This document shows positions 1-6,843 of a stretch of 14,412 nucleotides of DNA, in pieces. Each line of letters starts with the position of its first letter. Position 1 is the stretch's first letter. The stretch is from a virus (lineage: Duplodnaviria; Heunggongvirae; Uroviricota; Caudoviricetes): the IMG/VR virus record IMGVR_UViG_2690315808_000002. One strand, given 5' to 3'. Made by a program: the position numbers and the translations under genes. Below the pieces are notes generated by a model. The model was not told the DNA's origin. It saw only the letters and a program-made list of their open reading frames with translations, and did no database searches.

Positions 1-894
1 ATGCGCTCACCAATTTGTCATCTTTTCTCAGCAATTAATTCATCACCATTTAAGATTGCACCAGAGAAGGAGCAAGATCTTAAAACGATAGTTGACGACA
101 AAAAAATTATAATTTCAGTTGTGAGTGAACCTGGTTTTAATATCCGAGTCAGGAAGAATGAGAGTAATAATTCACATGAAATAGTTCTAACAGTAGCTTC
201 ACTTGAATATATTTGGGCATTTTCCAATTTCTTTTGGGTTTTTACGCAAGAGTACTCCAAATCTCAGAAAAATAATGATGAGCACTTTGATTTAACAGGA
301 AAAAATAGGCTTAAAAAGTCTGATGAACTTCTTAAATGGGCAAGGAAAAACTTGCAAACAACAGGTTGCGAATCATGGCCTAAAAAATGTCCCAAGCCAG
401 AAGCATATTTACAAGGAAGCGAAGACTCACAAGTTGCTAGCGAGATATTTCTTTGTGCTATTGCTTGGATTCTTCATCATGAAATAAGTCATGTTGTTTT
501 ACAGCATCCATTGGTCACTACAGCATTCTCCACTCAAGAGGAGCGTGAAGCAGATTCACATGCTACAAAATGGATATTAGGCAACCTGTATGAATCCGCT
601 CCTGAATTAAAGAAACGTGCACTTGGCATTGCTACGGCAGTGCTTTGTATACAAAGCTTAGAAGTTGAAAATTACTTCTGTTTACAAAATACACACCCAG
701 CTGCATATGAGCGTATATATTCGAATATTTCATGCTACCCTGTCGGAAATGAAGAGTTGATTGAAGCTCTATGTACAGTGATGCTTCAATATCTTTTCCA
801 TGGCAAAAATATCAATGTGAATCTAGATGGGGAGTCCTTTTCATCGATTTTAGGTGATCTTCTCTGTGATATTTCACGTCTTACCAGTAACTGA
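1..894 (+). CDS. lit: Lit cell-death zinc metalloprotease (phage-exclusion protease that cleaves EF-Tu)
   Basis: 297-codon ORF starting at ATG at position 1; HExxH zinc-binding motif (ILHHEISHVV); position next to int at the prophage end; length matches Lit as I recall it. Promoter lies outside the window. Confidence 0.85.
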   Translation: MRSPICHLFSAINSSPFKIAPEKEQDLKTIVDDKKIIISVVSEPGFNIRVRKNESNNSHEIVLTVASLEYIWAFSNFFWVFTQEYSKSQKNNDEHFDLTGKNRLKKSDELLKWARKNLQTTGCESWPKKCPKPEAYLQGSEDSQVASEIFLCAIAWILHHEISHVVLQHPLVTTAFSTQEEREADSHATKWILGNLYESAPELKKRALGIATAVLCIQSLEVENYFCLQNTHPAAYERIYSNISCYPVGNEELIEALCTVMLQYLFHGKNINVNLDGESFSSILGDLLCDISRLTSN

Positions 895-984: not shown

Positions 985-2112
985 TCACAACGCTACTTTG
1001 CTCCATCCTTTACCTCGATCATCATGATAACGATCGGTTTGTTGTTGTGTTTTATGACCAAGTAGTTTTTGTGTGTCTAACCCCTGTTCTTTATACAGAC
1101 GTTCAGATAAAGACCTTTGCTCATGGAATGTCGCAGGTGAACCCTCTCCCCAGTCAATTCTTGCTAAATCTCTCGCTTTACTAAAATTCATCGTCAATGT
1201 ATTGGCTTTAACCTGCGCTCCGCGCTCTGCTTGTGAAGTTGAACGAAAAAAATGCACTAAGTATGCACTGACTGCATAGTCACGGCAGCGGGCTACTACA
1301 TCGCGTAAACTCCAGTTAATCGCATTGAGGCGAAGAGAAAGAGGAATTGCGATTTTGCTCCCGGTCTTTTCCTGAATGACATGAAGATGATCATCCCAAA
1401 TATCGCTAAATTTCATACGCGAAATATCACCTAACCGCTGACCAGTAACCAGCGCTAACAGCATGGCATTTCCCATGTAACGATGAGTAGCGTCTGCGAT
1501 ATCGAAGATTTTTTTCCATTCTTCAAGGCTCAGCCGTTGTCGGGTAATTTTTCTTCTTGGTTGTTTAGTGGCTAATGCTGGGTTATAGCCAGGAGGTACT
1601 TCTCCGTAGTGCTGCGCCTCTTTGAAAACATCAATCAGGACGGAGCGAACTACTTGTGCCATTCTTGGCCGCCCAGCGGCGATATACTCATCAAGCAATT
1701 GTGCTATATCTCTGACATCAACGGCTGAGATCAACTTCATTCCTGCTCGTTCTCTGAGCAAGGATACTGGTTTAGCTTTTTGTTTATAGGTGTTGAGTCT
1801 TATATCACCACTTTTAAGCCTGTCATCCTGGATCGCTTGATAGCGATCTAACCAGGTTGACGTTGTGATAGCCTTTCCTTTGCTGGTTGCGATCCTGTCA
1901 CTGATAGCCAGAATCTGCCGGGTTCTTTGTTCAGCCAGGCGAGTGTTGGCCTCAGTGGCAATAGCGATAGCTTCAGCTTCGTTTGTTCCCAAAGCATGGA
2001 ATTTTCCTGTCACTGGATGCTTATACCGCCAATAGACTTTATTTACCTTCCTACTATAAAGCGGATATAAGTTAGGGACTGAAACATTATTCTTACGCGG
2101 TCTGGCTGCCAT
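985..2112 (-). CDS. intE: Lambda-family tyrosine integrase
   Basis: 375 aa; C-terminal catalytic region resembles lambda Int (LLGHKTQQQTDRYHDDRGKGW, with the tyrosine nucleophile in DRYHDD); overlaps xis by 20 bp as in lambda. Confidence 0.9.
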   Translation of the reverse strand: MAARPRKNNVSVPNLYPLYSRKVNKVYWRYKHPVTGKFHALGTNEAEAIAIATEANTRLAEQRTRQILAISDRIATSKGKAITTSTWLDRYQAIQDDRLKSGDIRLNTYKQKAKPVSLLRERAGMKLISAVDVRDIAQLLDEYIAAGRPRMAQVVRSVLIDVFKEAQHYGEVPPGYNPALATKQPRRKITRQRLSLEEWKKIFDIADATHRYMGNAMLLALVTGQRLGDISRMKFSDIWDDHLHVIQEKTGSKIAIPLSLRLNAINWSLRDVVARCRDYAVSAYLVHFFRSTSQAERGAQVKANTLTMNFSKARDLARIDWGEGSPATFHEQRSLSERLYKEQGLDTQKLLGHKTQQQTDRYHDDRGKGWSKVAL

Positions 2113-2338
2113 TACTCAAAATCCGTTGCAAAAGTAATGAGTCATTTTTCTTGATTACAGGTGTTACCAACTCCCCAACTAACTCGGCGTCCTCACGCAC
2201 TCGCCATAACCGGCCTTGTTTCATGGCCGGTGGACAAAATAAATTCTGCTTAGCATAACGACGCAATGTGGACACACTTGGAGGATTACTTCTGTATTTT
2301 TCAGCAGCCCATTCTTCAAGAGTTAACATTTGAAGCAT
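2093..2338 (-). CDS. xisE: Excisionase (lambda Xis-like)
   Basis: 81 aa; N-terminus (LTLEEWAA...STLRRYAKQNLFCPPAMKQGRLW) resembles lambda Xis; immediately upstream of and overlapping int. Confidence 0.85.
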   Translation of the reverse strand: MLQMLTLEEWAAEKYRSNPPSVSTLRRYAKQNLFCPPAMKQGRLWRVREDAELVGELVTPVIKKNDSLLLQRILSNGSQTA

Positions 2339-2374: not shown

Positions 2375-2686
2375 TCAGCATATCGACCCTGCACGGTCGG
2401 TTAGTTTCTCCACAAAACAGAGAAGAGCACCTGTGGCCACAGCTATCAGGATGGGTCGGGTTATTAACCCGTCATCCGGGGATACTCTTCTCTGTTTTGT
2501 AAAAAGGGCGGTACCAGAAAGGACTAAGGAAAAAACTGGTACCGCCAAGACTACACACAGCATAAAGTTGTGGTGTCGGGTGCCCCCGGTGCCTGGCGAA
2601 GGTTGCACACCAGGCGGGTGGGTATCCACAGAAGGTCGATTGTCAGCCTCAACCTTAACCCGCGTGCGCTGAGCCGCATTCACCAC
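2375..2686 (-). CDS. ymfH: Doubtful 103-codon ORF (the position usually annotated ymfH); may be non-coding
   Basis: Open frame only; N-terminal half is Pro/Gly/Thr/Arg-rich, C-terminal half hydrophobic; it lies over a GC-rich block of nested perfect inverted repeats (see findings). Confidence 0.25.
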   Translation of the reverse strand: MVNAAQRTRVKVEADNRPSVDTHPPGVQPSPGTGGTRHHNFMLCVVLAVPVFSLVLSGTALFTKQRRVSPDDGLITRPILIAVATGALLCFVEKLTDRAGSIC

Positions 2687-2802
2687 AACGCTAAGGATTC
2701 TCTCTGGTTGAAAATACTTAGCTGTTATGTGCCTGTCTTTTCACCACTTCAGGCTCGGTGGTATGCTGGAGTTCTCACACAGCCAGCAAGCAAGGAAACT
2801 TA

Positions 2803-3564: not shown

Positions 3565-4239
3565 TTAGGCTTTGATTTTGTATCTTCTTGGTTTTCCTGA
3601 GAAAATCACAGTACCAATTATAGAGCAATTACCGTTGATCTTAATGTAAGGCTCAGGCCAGTTTGGGTTTAACGCTTTGAGATAACGCTGTGTCCCATCT
3701 TCTATCAACCTTTTGAAGGTGGTTTCACCTGTATCGTGCATCAATGCAATAACGTCGTCACCGTGGCAGGCAGGTACTTCAGGATCGACAAAAATCATGT
3801 CTCCCGGGCGGTACTCATCAATCATTGAATCACCTATTACCCGCAAGATATAAGTCATTTCCCCACAGGGTACAGGGCAGGGATACGTTTCTGCTGTGCT
3901 CAAATCAACCTCAGAATATCCAACTTCTTTCCATGCTCCGGCCTGTACCCATGATATGACAGGGACTAATGTGATTTGTTTATTAGTGATTGAAACATCA
4001 GGTTTTTTTGTGATGTTCGTTGTCTGGTGTTCTTGATCGAGCCATCCTACAGGCAGGTCGAAACATTTTTCGATGTGTCGTGCCATGCTGTCACCGATAT
4101 TTTTAGTAGCACCATCTCCCATAAACCTGCTGGTCTGGGTTGGCTCGCGATCAATCATAGTGGCAAAGGAAGAATTCCCGCCAACACCATCTCTCAGTTT
4201 TCTGGCGTTAGACCGCCGGATGTCATGGATTGTTTTCAT
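3565..4239 (-). CDS. cohE: CI-like prophage repressor with LexA/S24 autopeptidase domain
   Basis: 224 aa; C-terminal S24 peptidase signature (GDSM serine, downstream KRL lysine) and a candidate Ala-Gly cleavage site (VQAGAW); divergent from a Cro-like gene. Confidence 0.9.
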   Translation of the reverse strand: MKTIHDIRRSNARKLRDGVGGNSSFATMIDREPTQTSRFMGDGATKNIGDSMARHIEKCFDLPVGWLDQEHQTTNITKKPDVSITNKQITLVPVISWVQAGAWKEVGYSEVDLSTAETYPCPVPCGEMTYILRVIGDSMIDEYRPGDMIFVDPEVPACHGDDVIALMHDTGETTFKRLIEDGTQRYLKALNPNWPEPYIKINGNCSIIGTVIFSGKPRRYKIKA

Positions 4240-5475: not shown

Positions 5476-6843
5476 ATGAGCACTAAATTAACCGGCTATG
5501 TATGGGATGGTTGCGCTGCATCAGGCATGAAGTTATCCAGCGTGGCAATTATGGCCCGCCTGGCTGATTTCAGTAATGACGAAGGTGTGTGCTGGCCATC
5601 AATTGAAACCATTGCCCGTCAGATTGGCGCGGGGATGAGTACCGTCAGAACGGCTATCGCACGGCTGGAAGCAGAAGGCTGGTTAACGCGTAAGGCGCGT
5701 CGCCAGGGTGATGGTTCATCACCCCACTGTGCCGTGGTGGATGAATATCACGAGCACGCCACAGATGCGCTTTACACCACGATGCTTACCGGGATGGGGG
5801 CGCGACGCCAGCCACTGATGTGGGCCATTACCACCGCCGGGTACAACATTGAGGGGCCGTGCTACGACAAACGGCGGGAAGTCATCGAGATGCTCAACGG
5901 CTCGGTGCCAAACGATGAACTGTTCGGGATCATCTATACCGTTGATGAAGGTGACGACTGGACCGACCCGCAGGTGCTGGAAAAAGCCAATCCAAATATT
6001 GGCGTGTCGGTTTATCGCGAATTTTTGTTAAGTCAGCAGCAGCGTGCGAAAAATAACGCCCGTCTGGCAAACGTCTTTAAAACAAAACACCTCAATATCT
6101 GGGCGTCGGCGCGTTCGGCGTATTTCAACCTGGTGAGCTGGCAGAGCTGCGAGGATAAATCACTGACCCTTGAGCAGTTCGAGGGGCAGCCGTGCATTCT
6201 GGCCTTTGACCTGGCGCGTAAGCTGGATATGAACAGCATGGCGCGACTTTATACCCGCGAGATTGACGGTAAAACGCATTACTACAGTGTGGCCCCGCGT
6301 TTCTGGGTACCGTATGACACGGTGTACAGCGTCGAGAAAAATGAAGATCGCCGGACAGCCGAACGCTTTCAGAAATGGGTGGAAATGGGCGTTCTGACCG
6401 TTACCGATGGTGCGGAGGTGGATTATCGCTACATCCTCGAAGAGGCCAAAGCGGCGAACAAAATCAGCCCGGTCAGTGAGTCACCCATCGACCCCTTCGG
6501 GGCGACCGGGCTGTCACATGACCTTGCTGATGAAGACCTGAACCCCGTCACCATCATTCAGAACTACACCAACATGTCCGATCCGATGAAAGAGCTGGAA
6601 GCGGCGATTGAATCGGGGCGCTTTCATCATGACGGCAATCCCATCATGACCTGGTGTATCGGCAACGTGGTCGGCAAAACCATTCCGGGTAACGATGATG
6701 TGGTGAAGCCCGTCAAGGAGCAGGCGGAAAACAAAATCGATGGTGCAGTTGCGCTGATTATGGCGGTTGGCAGAGCCATGCTGTACGAGAAAGAAGACAC
6801 GCTGTCTGATCACATTGAGTCCTACGGGATCCGCTCGCTTTAA
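5476..6843 (+). CDS. oweE: Deletion fusion: replication-initiator N-terminal HTH domain joined to the C-terminal two-thirds of a terminase large subunit
   Basis: 455 aa. First ~80 aa resemble a phage replication-protein winged-helix N-terminus ([30 protein letters not shown]); the rest resembles terminase large subunit from about the Walker B region (VVDEYHEH) through the nuclease domain; no Walker A P-loop is apparent. Confidence 0.8.

Follow-up and report, generated by a model that had tools for sequence, protein, structure and literature searches.

A small-RNA terminator followed by a conserved three-way-junction RNA, a proposed RNase III processing or insulator element, beneath the ymfH annotation of prophage e14

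Upstream of xis in the e14 prophage, a dense block of perfect inverted repeats is overlaid by the reading frame ymfH, which raises the question of whether this locus encodes a protein, binds proteins as DNA or acts as RNA. In the whole 14.4-kb stretch of DNA analysed (the window), a repeat search and an independent scan both recovered a 16-bp perfect inverted repeat (2412-2427 / 2485-2500) and an 11-bp perfect inverted repeat (2507-2517 / 2536-2546) whose arms are separated by 18 nt. With gaps of up to 80, these are the two longest perfect inverted repeats of the window. When the window was shuffled (n=30), the longest inverted repeat did not exceed 12 bp, and repeats of 11 bp or more occurred 0.17 times per shuffle. 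A preliminary description had given the 11-bp stem with its 18-nt loop correctly, and the 12-bp palindrome at 2431-2442 and the 15-bp palindrome at 2457-2471 read exactly as it claimed; the 16-bp repeat is present and perfect, although its right arm had been placed one position too far, at 2486-2501. The same description called the block GC-rich, which is weakly true, since its GC content (48.9%) exceeds that of the window (45.5%) and stays below that of the adjoining 2547-2720 (54.6%).

All of the repeats act as RNA, transcribed from the minus strand, which is the early-left (repressor-side) transcript direction of a lambdoid prophage. It is rather likely that the terminator of a small RNA (sRNA) is followed here by a junction serving as an RNase III processing or insulator element, and that ymfH is an artefact. 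The upstream part of the locus contains the following features.

2692-2700, minus strand: weak boxA-like motif GAAUCCUUA, 2-4 nt before the P1 helix, read by eye from alignments and upstream clusters
2567-2689, minus strand: structured P1 domain, with a closing helix GUUGUGGUG (2689-2681) / CACCACAAC (2575-2567) around several hairpins, from the inverted-repeat search
2547-2566, minus strand: single-stranded sRNA seed UUUAUGCUGUGUGUAGUCUU, from alignment with Rac KilS and Qin DicF
2507-2546, minus strand: terminator hairpin, 11-bp stem GGCGGUACCAG/CUGGUACCGCC with an 18-nt loop, from the repeat scans
2501-2506, minus strand: C + U5 tract of the terminator, with the in vivo RNA 3' end at 2501

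The stem at 2507-2546 together with CUUUUU is the intrinsic terminator of a prophage small RNA. Seven of its 11 pairs are G-C, and C + U5 follows directly on the minus strand. Term-seq has reported an RNA 3' end at MG1655 1201195(-) (Adams et al., 2021; PMC7815308 supplements). Mapped here, this position corresponds to window position 2501, the last U of the tract, and most K-12 transcripts end before the junction according to Term-seq. The U-tract is invariant across all homologues aligned and the GGCGG/CCGCC base of the hairpin is kept, while in ST64B, Kp4866, Rac and Qin the stem interior has a different sequence that is still complementary. An automatic scan missed the terminator because its loop limit was 8 nt and the actual loop has 18 nt.

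Alignment establishes that 2689-2501 includes the 3' module of a predicted sRNA of the KilS/DicF family, an unannotated e14 paralogue in which a role of Hfq is putative. The module consists of seed, terminator hairpin and U-tail and has homologous members: KilS and e14 are near-identical over the seed and the 5' half of the terminator, the terminator base is common to DicF, and the seed is kept in SfV, ST64B, phiNP and Kp4866. In each of e14, SfV, mEp460, ST64B, Stx2a, phiNP, Qin and Rac it sits in the same interval, with the immunity repressor on one side and the first early-left gene on the other. Further upstream, the closing helix of P1 is conserved whereas its interior differs among nine upstream clusters, and the boxA-like motif is, by eye, closer to boxA in relatives (UGCUCUC / UGCUCUUU). 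A consensus promoter scan gave no good promoter directly 5' of the sRNA domain, and an RNA 3' end at 2729 suggests that the sRNA is processed out of a longer ymfJ transcript. A weak promoter candidate, AAGACA-17-TATTTT, was read by eye and is backed by no tool.

KilS (b4833) of Rac is a northern-verified sRNA with three RIL-seq (Hfq) interactions (Bar et al., 2021; PMC8175672). The e14 sRNA resembles it in a near-identical seed, UGCUGUGUGUAGUC[C/U]UGGCGG, in a terminator hairpin on a GGCGG/CCGCC base with a U5 tail, and in its place within the prophage, where it occupies the 5' leader of the first early-left gene on the repressor side. KilS differs in being a 98-nt RNA, able to have its own promoter, that is followed by an STnc100-like domain and kilR, whereas in e14 the STnc100-like domain comes before the sRNA and the three-way junction and xis come after it; by eye, the STnc100-like domain takes the place of the junction after the Rac sRNA terminator. 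The annotations also diverge, the e14 copy being a protein gene (ymfH) and KilS an sRNA. DicF of Qin shares the homologous terminator hairpin and U-tail, and its locus shares an upstream precursor domain with a GUUGUGG/CCACAAC-type helix (L084 against Qin) and, in dicF-dicB, a helix of at least 20 bp that begins just past the U-tract. After the terminator, Qin has an STnc100-like domain where e14 has the three-way junction, a different fold, and the e14 seed differs from that of DicF, so pairing with ftsZ is not expected.

The upstream domain also recalls STnc100/PasD, in which UGGUGAAU and a hairpin lead to the CACCGGGAGGCACCCGGCACCA closing helix and then to a terminator, all copies being prophage-borne; canonical copies are found 3' of Q or stx2, in the late region, and not in an early-left leader. 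The STnc100 model RF02076 covers 2498-2719 only, and the three-way junction lies outside it. The full model aligned to e14 with its motifs conserved at 29.2 bits, and the SfV copy scored 39.5 bits, both below the gathering score of 47, while DicF (RF00039) aligned at the terminator with 28.5 bits against a gathering score of 48. These two leads came only from a permissive scan, and the Rfam search proposed in the preliminary description gave zero matches in the window at gathering thresholds.

Directly past the terminator lies the second element, with a small hairpin behind it.

2404-2505, minus strand: three-way-junction RNA of 102 nt, from covariance model R1, covariation, RNAalifold and MFE folds
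2449-2477, minus strand: hairpin 1 of the junction, where the junction alignment varies least
2431-2442, minus strand: hairpin 2 of the junction, CUGU-GGCC-ACAG in e14, varying in sequence and length among phages
2382-2401, minus strand: small hairpin just past the junction and before the first downstream gene

The 16-bp repeat forms the core of a basal helix of about 25 bp, in which U5 + ACAAAACAGAGAAGAG + UAUC (2505-2481) pairs with GGUG + CUCUUCUCUGUUUUGU + GGAGA (2431-2407), and this helix carries the two hairpins. It is started by the terminator's own U-tract, which pairs with the conserved GGAGA, and these pairs are retained in 41 of 41 variants (RNAalifold). RNA folding, suggested as a check on the repeats, returned the 25-bp helix from RNAalifold independently and from MFE folds alike, with fold stability of z = -5.8 to -6.9. 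Hairpin 1 had been recorded beforehand as an imperfect hairpin, and it does exist; its apex reads GGG-CUCAUAA-CCC in most phages and has degenerated to CGGGUU-AAU-AACCCG in e14. Hairpin 2 is 25 nt larger in phiNP. Despite such size changes, the 20-bp helix core (alignment columns 6-25 / 103-122) is free of indels, and nine of its 20 pairs never vary in sequence.

The covariation check likewise supported the stems. Across 41 distinct variants, pairing holds in 95.9% of cells, compared with 45-57% when the partners are slid, and for hairpin 2 the count (85.9%) understates the pairing because the MAFFT alignment is out of structural register in the ST64B and e14 types. Changes on both sides occurred at seven pairs and the observed covariation score was reached by none of 500 shuffles, the compensatory changes representing few independent events because the homologues are closely related. 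The signal is strand-specific: 78 cells are G-U on the minus strand, against 20 (A-C) that the plus strand would make G-U, and R1 scores 101.5 bits on the minus strand versus 32.8 on the plus strand. No Rfam family matches the junction, and a search with R1 turned up no further copy in the window, nor any in the stretches of Qin and HK022 that it covered. Conservation and covariation show that the junction exists as a conserved structured RNA.

Of 5426 complete E. coli genomes, 2795 carry the junction; it also occurs in 68-73 phage records of five genera, and it is conserved in phages of Escherichia, Shigella, Salmonella, Klebsiella and Citrobacter. Among the 186 loci whose upstream flank is long enough, 185 have the sRNA terminator 5' of the junction, the exception being the rearranged locus L055. 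Around this one junction, nine upstream and 11 downstream sequence clusters were found; the genes 3' of it differ by phage, and xis is among them only in e14. The link to xis-int proposed in the preliminary description is an accident of e14: in relatives, at least 11 different downstream contexts follow the same block. At the post-junction site, a hairpin of differing sequence was seen by eye in about 9 of 11 downstream cluster representatives. Pairing of the hairpin-1 loop with a downstream start, a Shine-Dalgarno sequence or the seed was also considered by eye and dropped, being unconserved across contexts.

Our best guess is that, in early-left transcripts that read through the terminator, the junction serves for RNase III processing or as an insulator. 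Transcription would normally end at 2501, releasing the KilS/DicF-type sRNA, and polymerases that read through would transcribe the 102-nt junction. Cleavage of its basal helix by RNase III would then separate the sRNA from the early mRNA that follows, which carries YfdP/Sb37-like genes in phages and xis-int in e14, and would leave the new 5' end of the mRNA just before the small hairpin, which may be protective. Hairpin 1, being nearly invariant, is probably the binding site of a further, conserved host factor. RNase III accommodates about 22 bp, and RNAalifold and MFE folds give an intramolecular basal helix of 25 bp; because this is the size of an RNase III substrate, cleavage would cut the sRNA from the mRNA. 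The closest parallel is DicF, whose 3' end arises by termination or by RNase III and whose 72-nt form is made by RNase III. At the homologous dicF-dicB locus, an RNase III cut lies 19 nt past the DicF terminator, within a 21-bp helix, and among the RNase III-dependent sites listed the only one pertinent here is in the dicF-dicB spacer. The 21-bp helix begins 8 nt past the DicF U-tract.

RNase III processing sites occur in phage leaders, including the lambda N leader, lambda sib and T7 early mRNA, where cleavage separates or destabilises the flanking RNAs. Like the junction, they offer a long intramolecular helix, about two turns in length, within a stretch of an early transcript that is not translated. 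These classical sites are simple hairpins with internal loops, whereas the junction is three-way with a sequence-invariant side arm, and cleavage here is predicted. Because a simple long hairpin would suffice as a site, the RNase III model leaves the three-way architecture, the near-invariance of hairpin 1 and the 9 of 20 unvarying core pairs unaccounted for.

The annotated protein gene lies across both RNAs.

2375-2686, minus strand: ymfH ORF (b1142 in K-12), 103 codons, not considered a true gene

The overlapping ORF was correctly noted beforehand, together with the doubt that it is a protein gene. From the equivalent start, the frame runs for 19, 24, 30, 47 or 75 codons, with frameshifts, in 115 of 121 homologous loci, and the few versions of 100-103 codons differ in their middle section. 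A frame broken in nearly all homologues is very probably spurious, and ymfH also overlaps an RNA whose 3' end falls within it. The core of the earlier view, a structured RNA in place of a protein gene, is upheld by the unconserved frame, the covarying stems and the RNA 3' end on the U-tract of the hairpin; that view did not specify the minus strand, identify the right-hand stem as an sRNA terminator or set the left-hand repeat apart as a junction. The ymfH gene is probably an annotation artefact lying over RNAs.

Several other explanations were weighed against this reading. A genuine small protein gene, or a relic miniature inverted-repeat element (MITE), is extremely improbable. The ORF is intact in K-12 and a few relatives, and PGAP places a 'hypothetical protein' over the region in many genomes among those listed; yet the frame is interrupted or shifted in those 115 of 121 loci despite 80-90% DNA identity. 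Similarly, the 16-bp repeats look terminal, as in a MITE, but target-site duplication is absent (CUUUUU and GGAGAA, which flank the element, do not form direct repeats), each locus has one copy, and the same sRNA terminator precedes the element in prophage early regions, L055 excepted. It is also very improbable that a dimeric protein (repressor, Xis, Int or IHF) binds the repeats as DNA and loops the two 16-bp arms together, as in the cluster of binding sites once suggested. Two identical half-sites 73 bp apart centre to centre, about seven helical turns, would fit, and half-sites that changed symmetrically would look as if they had changed by compensation. Against this, the G-U pairs are strongly biased to one strand (78 versus 20), one pair is U-G in 40 of 41 variants, so that the DNA half-sites differ there, the inner hairpins covary as well, and the arm spacing changes by 25 bp in phiNP. 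The attP, Xis and IHF-site reading was dropped because the block is kilobases from xis-int in relatives; in SfV-type phages it lies about 2.5 kb or more from xis and not at attP. A second, back-up terminator or structural shield, in which a stable fold stops polymerase or Rho unspecifically, is quite improbable. The very stable fold, the long untranslated leader and the outer-stem flanks ACAAAAC and GUUUUGU, which resemble the A-/U-tracts of a bidirectional terminator, speak for it, but no free U-tract follows the 3' strand, where GGAGAAAC stands instead, 57 nt are inserted within the stem, no 3' end beyond the junction is listed by Term-seq, and a generic stable fold would not need so much sequence conservation.

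Two readings start from a conserved host component. In one, which is rather unlikely, the junction modifies RNA polymerase in cis like put of HK022, so that polymerases past the sRNA terminator ignore later terminators and Rho along the long early-left operon. The junction heads a long early operon in phages without a recognisable N gene, a boxA-like motif stands upstream of the locus, and the near-invariance of its sequence across genera, while the surrounding phage modules vary, suggests a conserved host partner such as RNA polymerase. HK022 put is similarly a cis-acting structured phage RNA of comparable size with two hairpins at the start of an early operon; it has no closing helix, however, and precedes the terminators that it suppresses, whereas the junction is closed by the 25-bp helix and comes after a terminator, the strongest terminator here being upstream of it. 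R1 found no match in a 10-kb HK022 stretch (22000-32000), in which put itself was not located. In the other, which is unlikely, hairpin 1 mimics the anticodon arm of initiator tRNA and decoys or titrates a host or defence factor, the candidates being a VapC-type tRNA-fMet nuclease, MetRS and the 30S P site, and the long helix merely presents it. CG-CGGGCUCAUAACCC and metZ agree at 16 of 17 positions and share an exact 14-mer, and none of 5000 shuffles scored as high. The SfV-type hairpin 1 apex and the metZ anticodon arm both have three G-C pairs and the loop CUCAUAA, a combination that is the hallmark of initiator tRNA, and this hairpin is the most conserved part of the element. In Salmonella, VapC of LT2 generates tRNA fragments and the SOS response brings prophage-dependent tRNA cleavage, both of which would suit a mimic. 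The likeness was noticed post hoc, however, and it ends at the arm: the rest of the element is unlike tRNA-fMet (metZ/W/V), and no tRNA cloverleaf was recognised by ARAGORN in the window or seven related loci, nor any tRNA in an Rfam E-value scan. Loop position 37 varies, being U in Salmonella and Klebsiella variants where a purine is expected, and the loop is lost in the e14 copy. It would be a long shot to call the junction a new class of phage RNA whose side arm imitates the initiator-tRNA anticodon arm and acts on a conserved host component. If that were true, the RNA would be made only on early-left read-through at induction, where it might, for example, draw off VapC-type tRNA-fMet nucleases or other tRNA-targeting defences, or else modulate the initiation of translation, with the 25-bp helix releasing or presenting the side arm.

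With a terminated sRNA and a processing or insulator junction as the preferred reading, the annotation of ymfH (b1142) in K-12 should probably be replaced by an sRNA gene, a paralogue of KilS and DicF, and the PGAP 'hypothetical protein' calls over the region are probably wrong as well. One leader plan is common to Qin, Rac, e14 and the SfV/ST64B/mEp460 phages, in the order structured domain, sRNA seed, terminator, long-helix module and first (often toxic) early gene. This shared plan frames how cryptic prophages silence kil, dicB and xis-int yet still make an sRNA. Present in about half of complete E. coli genomes, absent from Rfam and bearing a look-alike of the initiator-tRNA anticodon arm, the junction is an inexpensive, well-defined experimental target.

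The window corresponds to the left end of e14, a cryptic prophage of E. coli K-12, and is 100% identical to MG1655 (MG1655 coordinate = 1198694 + window position). Its genes lie in this order:

1-894, plus strand, lit
985-2112, minus strand, intE
2093-2338, minus strand, xisE
2375-2686, minus strand, the annotated ymfH ORF
between the ymfH ORF and ymfJ, plus strand, ymfI
between ymfI and cohE/ymfK, minus strand, ymfJ
3565-4239, minus strand, cohE/ymfK, a CI-like repressor gene

No perfect inverted repeat elsewhere in the window is as long as the two in the block at 2412-2546. One is 16 bp long (2412-2427 / 2485-2500, the right arm having been placed 1 nt out in the preliminary description); the other is an 11-bp stem (2507-2517 / 2536-2546) with a loop of 18 nt, and both it and the palindromes at 2431-2442 and 2457-2471 read exactly as described. 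Shuffled windows contained on average 0.17 repeats of at least 11 bp, and none exceeded 12 bp. The third-longest perfect inverted repeat measures 10 bp (6465-6474 / 6504-6513). The block is richer in GC than the window (48.9% vs 45.5%), although calling the block itself GC-rich was an overstatement. The proposal of a structured RNA instead of a protein gene was correct in substance but incomplete. The block has two halves: one is the terminator of a known prophage sRNA type, ordinary and explained, and the other is a real, widespread and conserved RNA fold.

The right-hand 11-bp stem works as a minus-strand terminator: CUUUUU follows it on that strand, and AAGACU on the plus strand. Term-seq tables list a 3' end at 1201195(-), lying between ...CUGGUACCGCCCUUUUU and ACAAAACAGA (Adams et al. 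2021, PMC7815308); this is window position 2501, the last U of the U-tract. The hairpin base GGCGG/CCGCC and the U-tract are invariant among homologues, and in ST64B, Klebsiella phage Kp4866-6, Rac and Qin the remainder of the stem has given way to different sequences that are again self-complementary. That ymfH is a protein gene is very unlikely, because the DNA is conserved without the frame and an RNA 3' end lies inside the ORF. Of 121 loci translated from the conserved start (GUG GUG AAU GCG, within the likewise conserved P1 helix of the upstream domain), 115 meet a stop after 19, 24, 30, 47 or 75 codons and the other six reach 100-103 codons. Two of the six, the window and L314, carry the K-12 sequence; in two more, L022 and L043, an additional T within the U-tract restores the frame, and the middle section differs. 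Between e14 and SfV, a 1-nt indel shifts the frame in mid-ORF. The RNA region of SfV-type loci is spanned by an open frame that continues into orf32 (226 codons; L001 2491-~2850, minus strand); this is probably the reason for PGAP 'hypothetical protein' calls in many RefSeq genomes.

The sRNA/terminator part is a previously unannotated member of the KilS/DicF kind. KilS (b4833) of Rac is an annotated, northern-verified sRNA with three RIL-seq (Hfq) interactions (Bar et al. 2021, PMC8175672). Its seed is AUUGCUGUGUGUAGUCCUGGCGG and the e14 counterpart is UUUAUGCUGUGUGUAGUCUUGGCGG, and the terminators and U5 tails of the two RNAs are of one kind; this comparison within K-12 is decisive for the kinship. 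DicF of Qin occupies the same locus position. The immunity repressor and the first early-left gene flank all three RNAs, as they do the homologues in SfV, mEp460, ST64B, Stx2 phages and phiNP. Upstream of the e14 seed is a structured domain. The helix GUUGUGGUG/CACCACAAC (2689-2681 / 2575-2567) that closes it is conserved, and at least seven unrelated sequences fill the interior; the version in L084 is homologous to the sequence 5' of dicF in Qin. This makes DicF, KilS and the e14 RNA variants of a single locus type. In a permissive Rfam scan, DicF (RF00039) aligned to 2506-2559 (-) with 28.5 bits against a gathering score of 48, and the whole STnc100 model (RF02076) to 2498-2719 (-) with 29.2 bits against 47 (39.5 bits for the SfV copy). 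The e14 RNA is filed under neither family, because neither score passes the threshold. Its upstream domain resembles STnc100/PasD; canonical STnc100/PasD copies are late-region elements located close to Q and stx2.

The left-hand 16-bp repeat forms a three-way-junction RNA (2404-2505, minus strand). At the top, UAUC/GGUG lengthens it to 20 bp; at the bottom, a conserved GGAGA pairs with the U5 of the terminator. The result is a 25-bp helix that RNAalifold predicts without a supplied structure and that carries two hairpins:

2477-2449, minus strand, hairpin 1
2442-2431, minus strand, hairpin 2

The segment 2374-2548 alone is matched at ~83% identity in mEp460, cdtI, Stx2a, Stx2c and other phages, and the whole of 2374-2760 in SfV-like phages. 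Matches occur in 2795 of 5426 complete E. coli genomes and in 68-73 phage records from Escherichia, Shigella, Salmonella, Klebsiella, Citrobacter and Cronobacter; 186 gathered loci yielded 41 distinct versions. Minimum-free-energy folds of e14 and SfV agree with the helix and two hairpins, and the five U-tract pairs are kept in all 41 variants. Counted across 33 pairs, pairing holds in 95.9% of cells; sliding the partners by 1-3 columns lowers this to 45-57%. Two-sided changes affect seven pairs (A-U to C-G; G-C to C-G; G-C to A-U and C-G; A-U to G-C in 17 hairpin 1 variants), and none of 500 shuffles reached the observed covariation score, the sequences being closely related and the compensatory changes thus few independent events.

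Pairing prefers the minus strand, which matches the direction of transcription: there are 78 G-U cells, against 20 for a plus-strand reading, 40 of 41 variants have U-G at one pair, and R1, the covariance model of the junction, scores 101.5 bits on the minus strand vs 32.8 on the plus. A DNA-level reading of the repeat as paired protein-binding sites is therefore disfavoured, because two half-sites would be identical and not G-U related; the arm spacing, which differs by 25 bp in phiNP, also opposes it. A MITE, an att site and an operator pair were likewise rejected. No Rfam family matched the junction in gathering-threshold or permissive scans, and HK022 put differs in topology and in placement relative to the terminator. 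The junction moves together with the terminator, not with xis. Sequences right after GGAGAAAC(Y)AA form 11 unrelated clusters, including YfdP/Sb37-like genes, xis (e14 type only) and others, some of which look RdgC-like from their translations; a small hairpin comes first in ~9 of 11 cluster representatives (read by eye), and the upstream side forms nine clusters. Since the downstream clusters vary in this way, the suggested leader controlling xis-int applies to the e14 type only, a special case resulting from the deletion that produced e14.

The anatomy of junction and sRNA is held with high confidence; how the two may work together is more tentative. The 3' end of DicF is made by termination or by RNase III, the RNase III form being 72 nt and 19 nt longer, and a genome-wide study includes the dicF-dicB spacer in its list of RNase III-dependent sites. 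Folding gives this spacer a closing helix of ~21 bp, beginning 8 nt past the U-tract, so the +19 cut falls within it. The dicF-dicB (L313 1146-1295) and kilS-kilR (L319 ~960-1100) spacers each have an STnc100-like domain (GGUGAAUGCGGCU.AGCGCACG...CACCUGGAGGCACCAG); the reported Qin cut falls in that domain, and, judged from its sequence, Rac appears to be organised alike ahead of kilR. The junction fills this slot in e14- and SfV-type elements, its 25-bp helix beginning at the U-tract itself. Given the dicF-dicB precedent, the same slot and a helix of 25 bp where RNase III takes ~22 bp, it is proposed, with less than even confidence, that read-through transcripts are cut within this helix; the cut would free the sRNA and leave an mRNA starting just before the small hairpin. 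Such a cut would account for the position, the indel-free length of the 20-bp core and the conserved GGAGA, but leaves the invariance of hairpin 1 unaccounted for.

Conservation within the element is highest at the apex of hairpin 1. In SfV-type copies this apex reads CG-CGGGCUCAUAACCC, and initiator tRNA metZ of E. coli has CGUCGGGCUCAUAACCC, with three G-C pairs and the loop CUCAUAA; 16 of 17 positions are identical (exact match of 14 nt), which none of 5000 shuffles equalled. The likeness ends at the matched arm, and no tRNA was detected in the element by a permissive Rfam scan or by ARAGORN on the window and seven related loci. Loop position 37 is U in Salmonella and Klebsiella versions, and the defective e14 copy has a mutated loop and a lengthened stem. 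Imitation of the initiator-tRNA anticodon arm, a reading that rests on this likeness noticed post hoc, is a lead.

Further Term-seq 3' ends lie at window 2563 and, strongly, at 2729 (Adams et al. 2021, PMC7815308), and deep sequencing has seen a 68-nt RNA, ECS171, ending near 2730. The sole strong promoter-like site, near-consensus TTGACA-16-CATAAT at 3525-3498 (-), stands just past a terminator-like hairpin (3553-3534, minus strand) directly 3' of the repressor gene. It is a candidate early-left promoter for ymfJ, the sRNA and, by read-through, xis-int. Together these observations suggest that the sRNA may be processed out of the ymfJ transcript. The 2729 end and ECS171 (~2729-2797, minus strand) are antisense to the ymfI ribosome-binding site, and the same block recurs 5' of KilS in Rac. 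By eye, a boxA-like motif can be read at 2692-2700 (-), separated by 2-4 nt from the P1 helix that follows, which raises the possibility of a nut-like role for the structured domain; the e14 match is weak (AAUCCUUA), UGCUCUC stands just 5' of GTTGTGG in L002, L245 and L246, and L098 has UGCUCUUU. In alignments A1 and A2 of related loci, tRNA 3'-half lookalikes (GGTTCGATTCCAGAC..., GGTCCGTTCGATTCGGAC...) precede the sRNA locus in phiNP, Kp4866-6 and Stx2a_1447 (L245 ~2230-2330, L246 ~2230-2330 and L004), where ARAGORN found no tRNA. The early-right region of ST64B holds an IsrK homologue (L003 5240-5316, plus strand; RF01394, 64.3 bits, above the gathering score).

The e14 prophage thus holds an unannotated KilS paralogue with an almost identical seed (window 2547-2566, minus strand; KilS at L319 1106-1203, minus strand). 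K-12 may produce two RNAs, from e14 and Rac, that share one targeting sequence, and KilS reads or probes could cross-map to e14.
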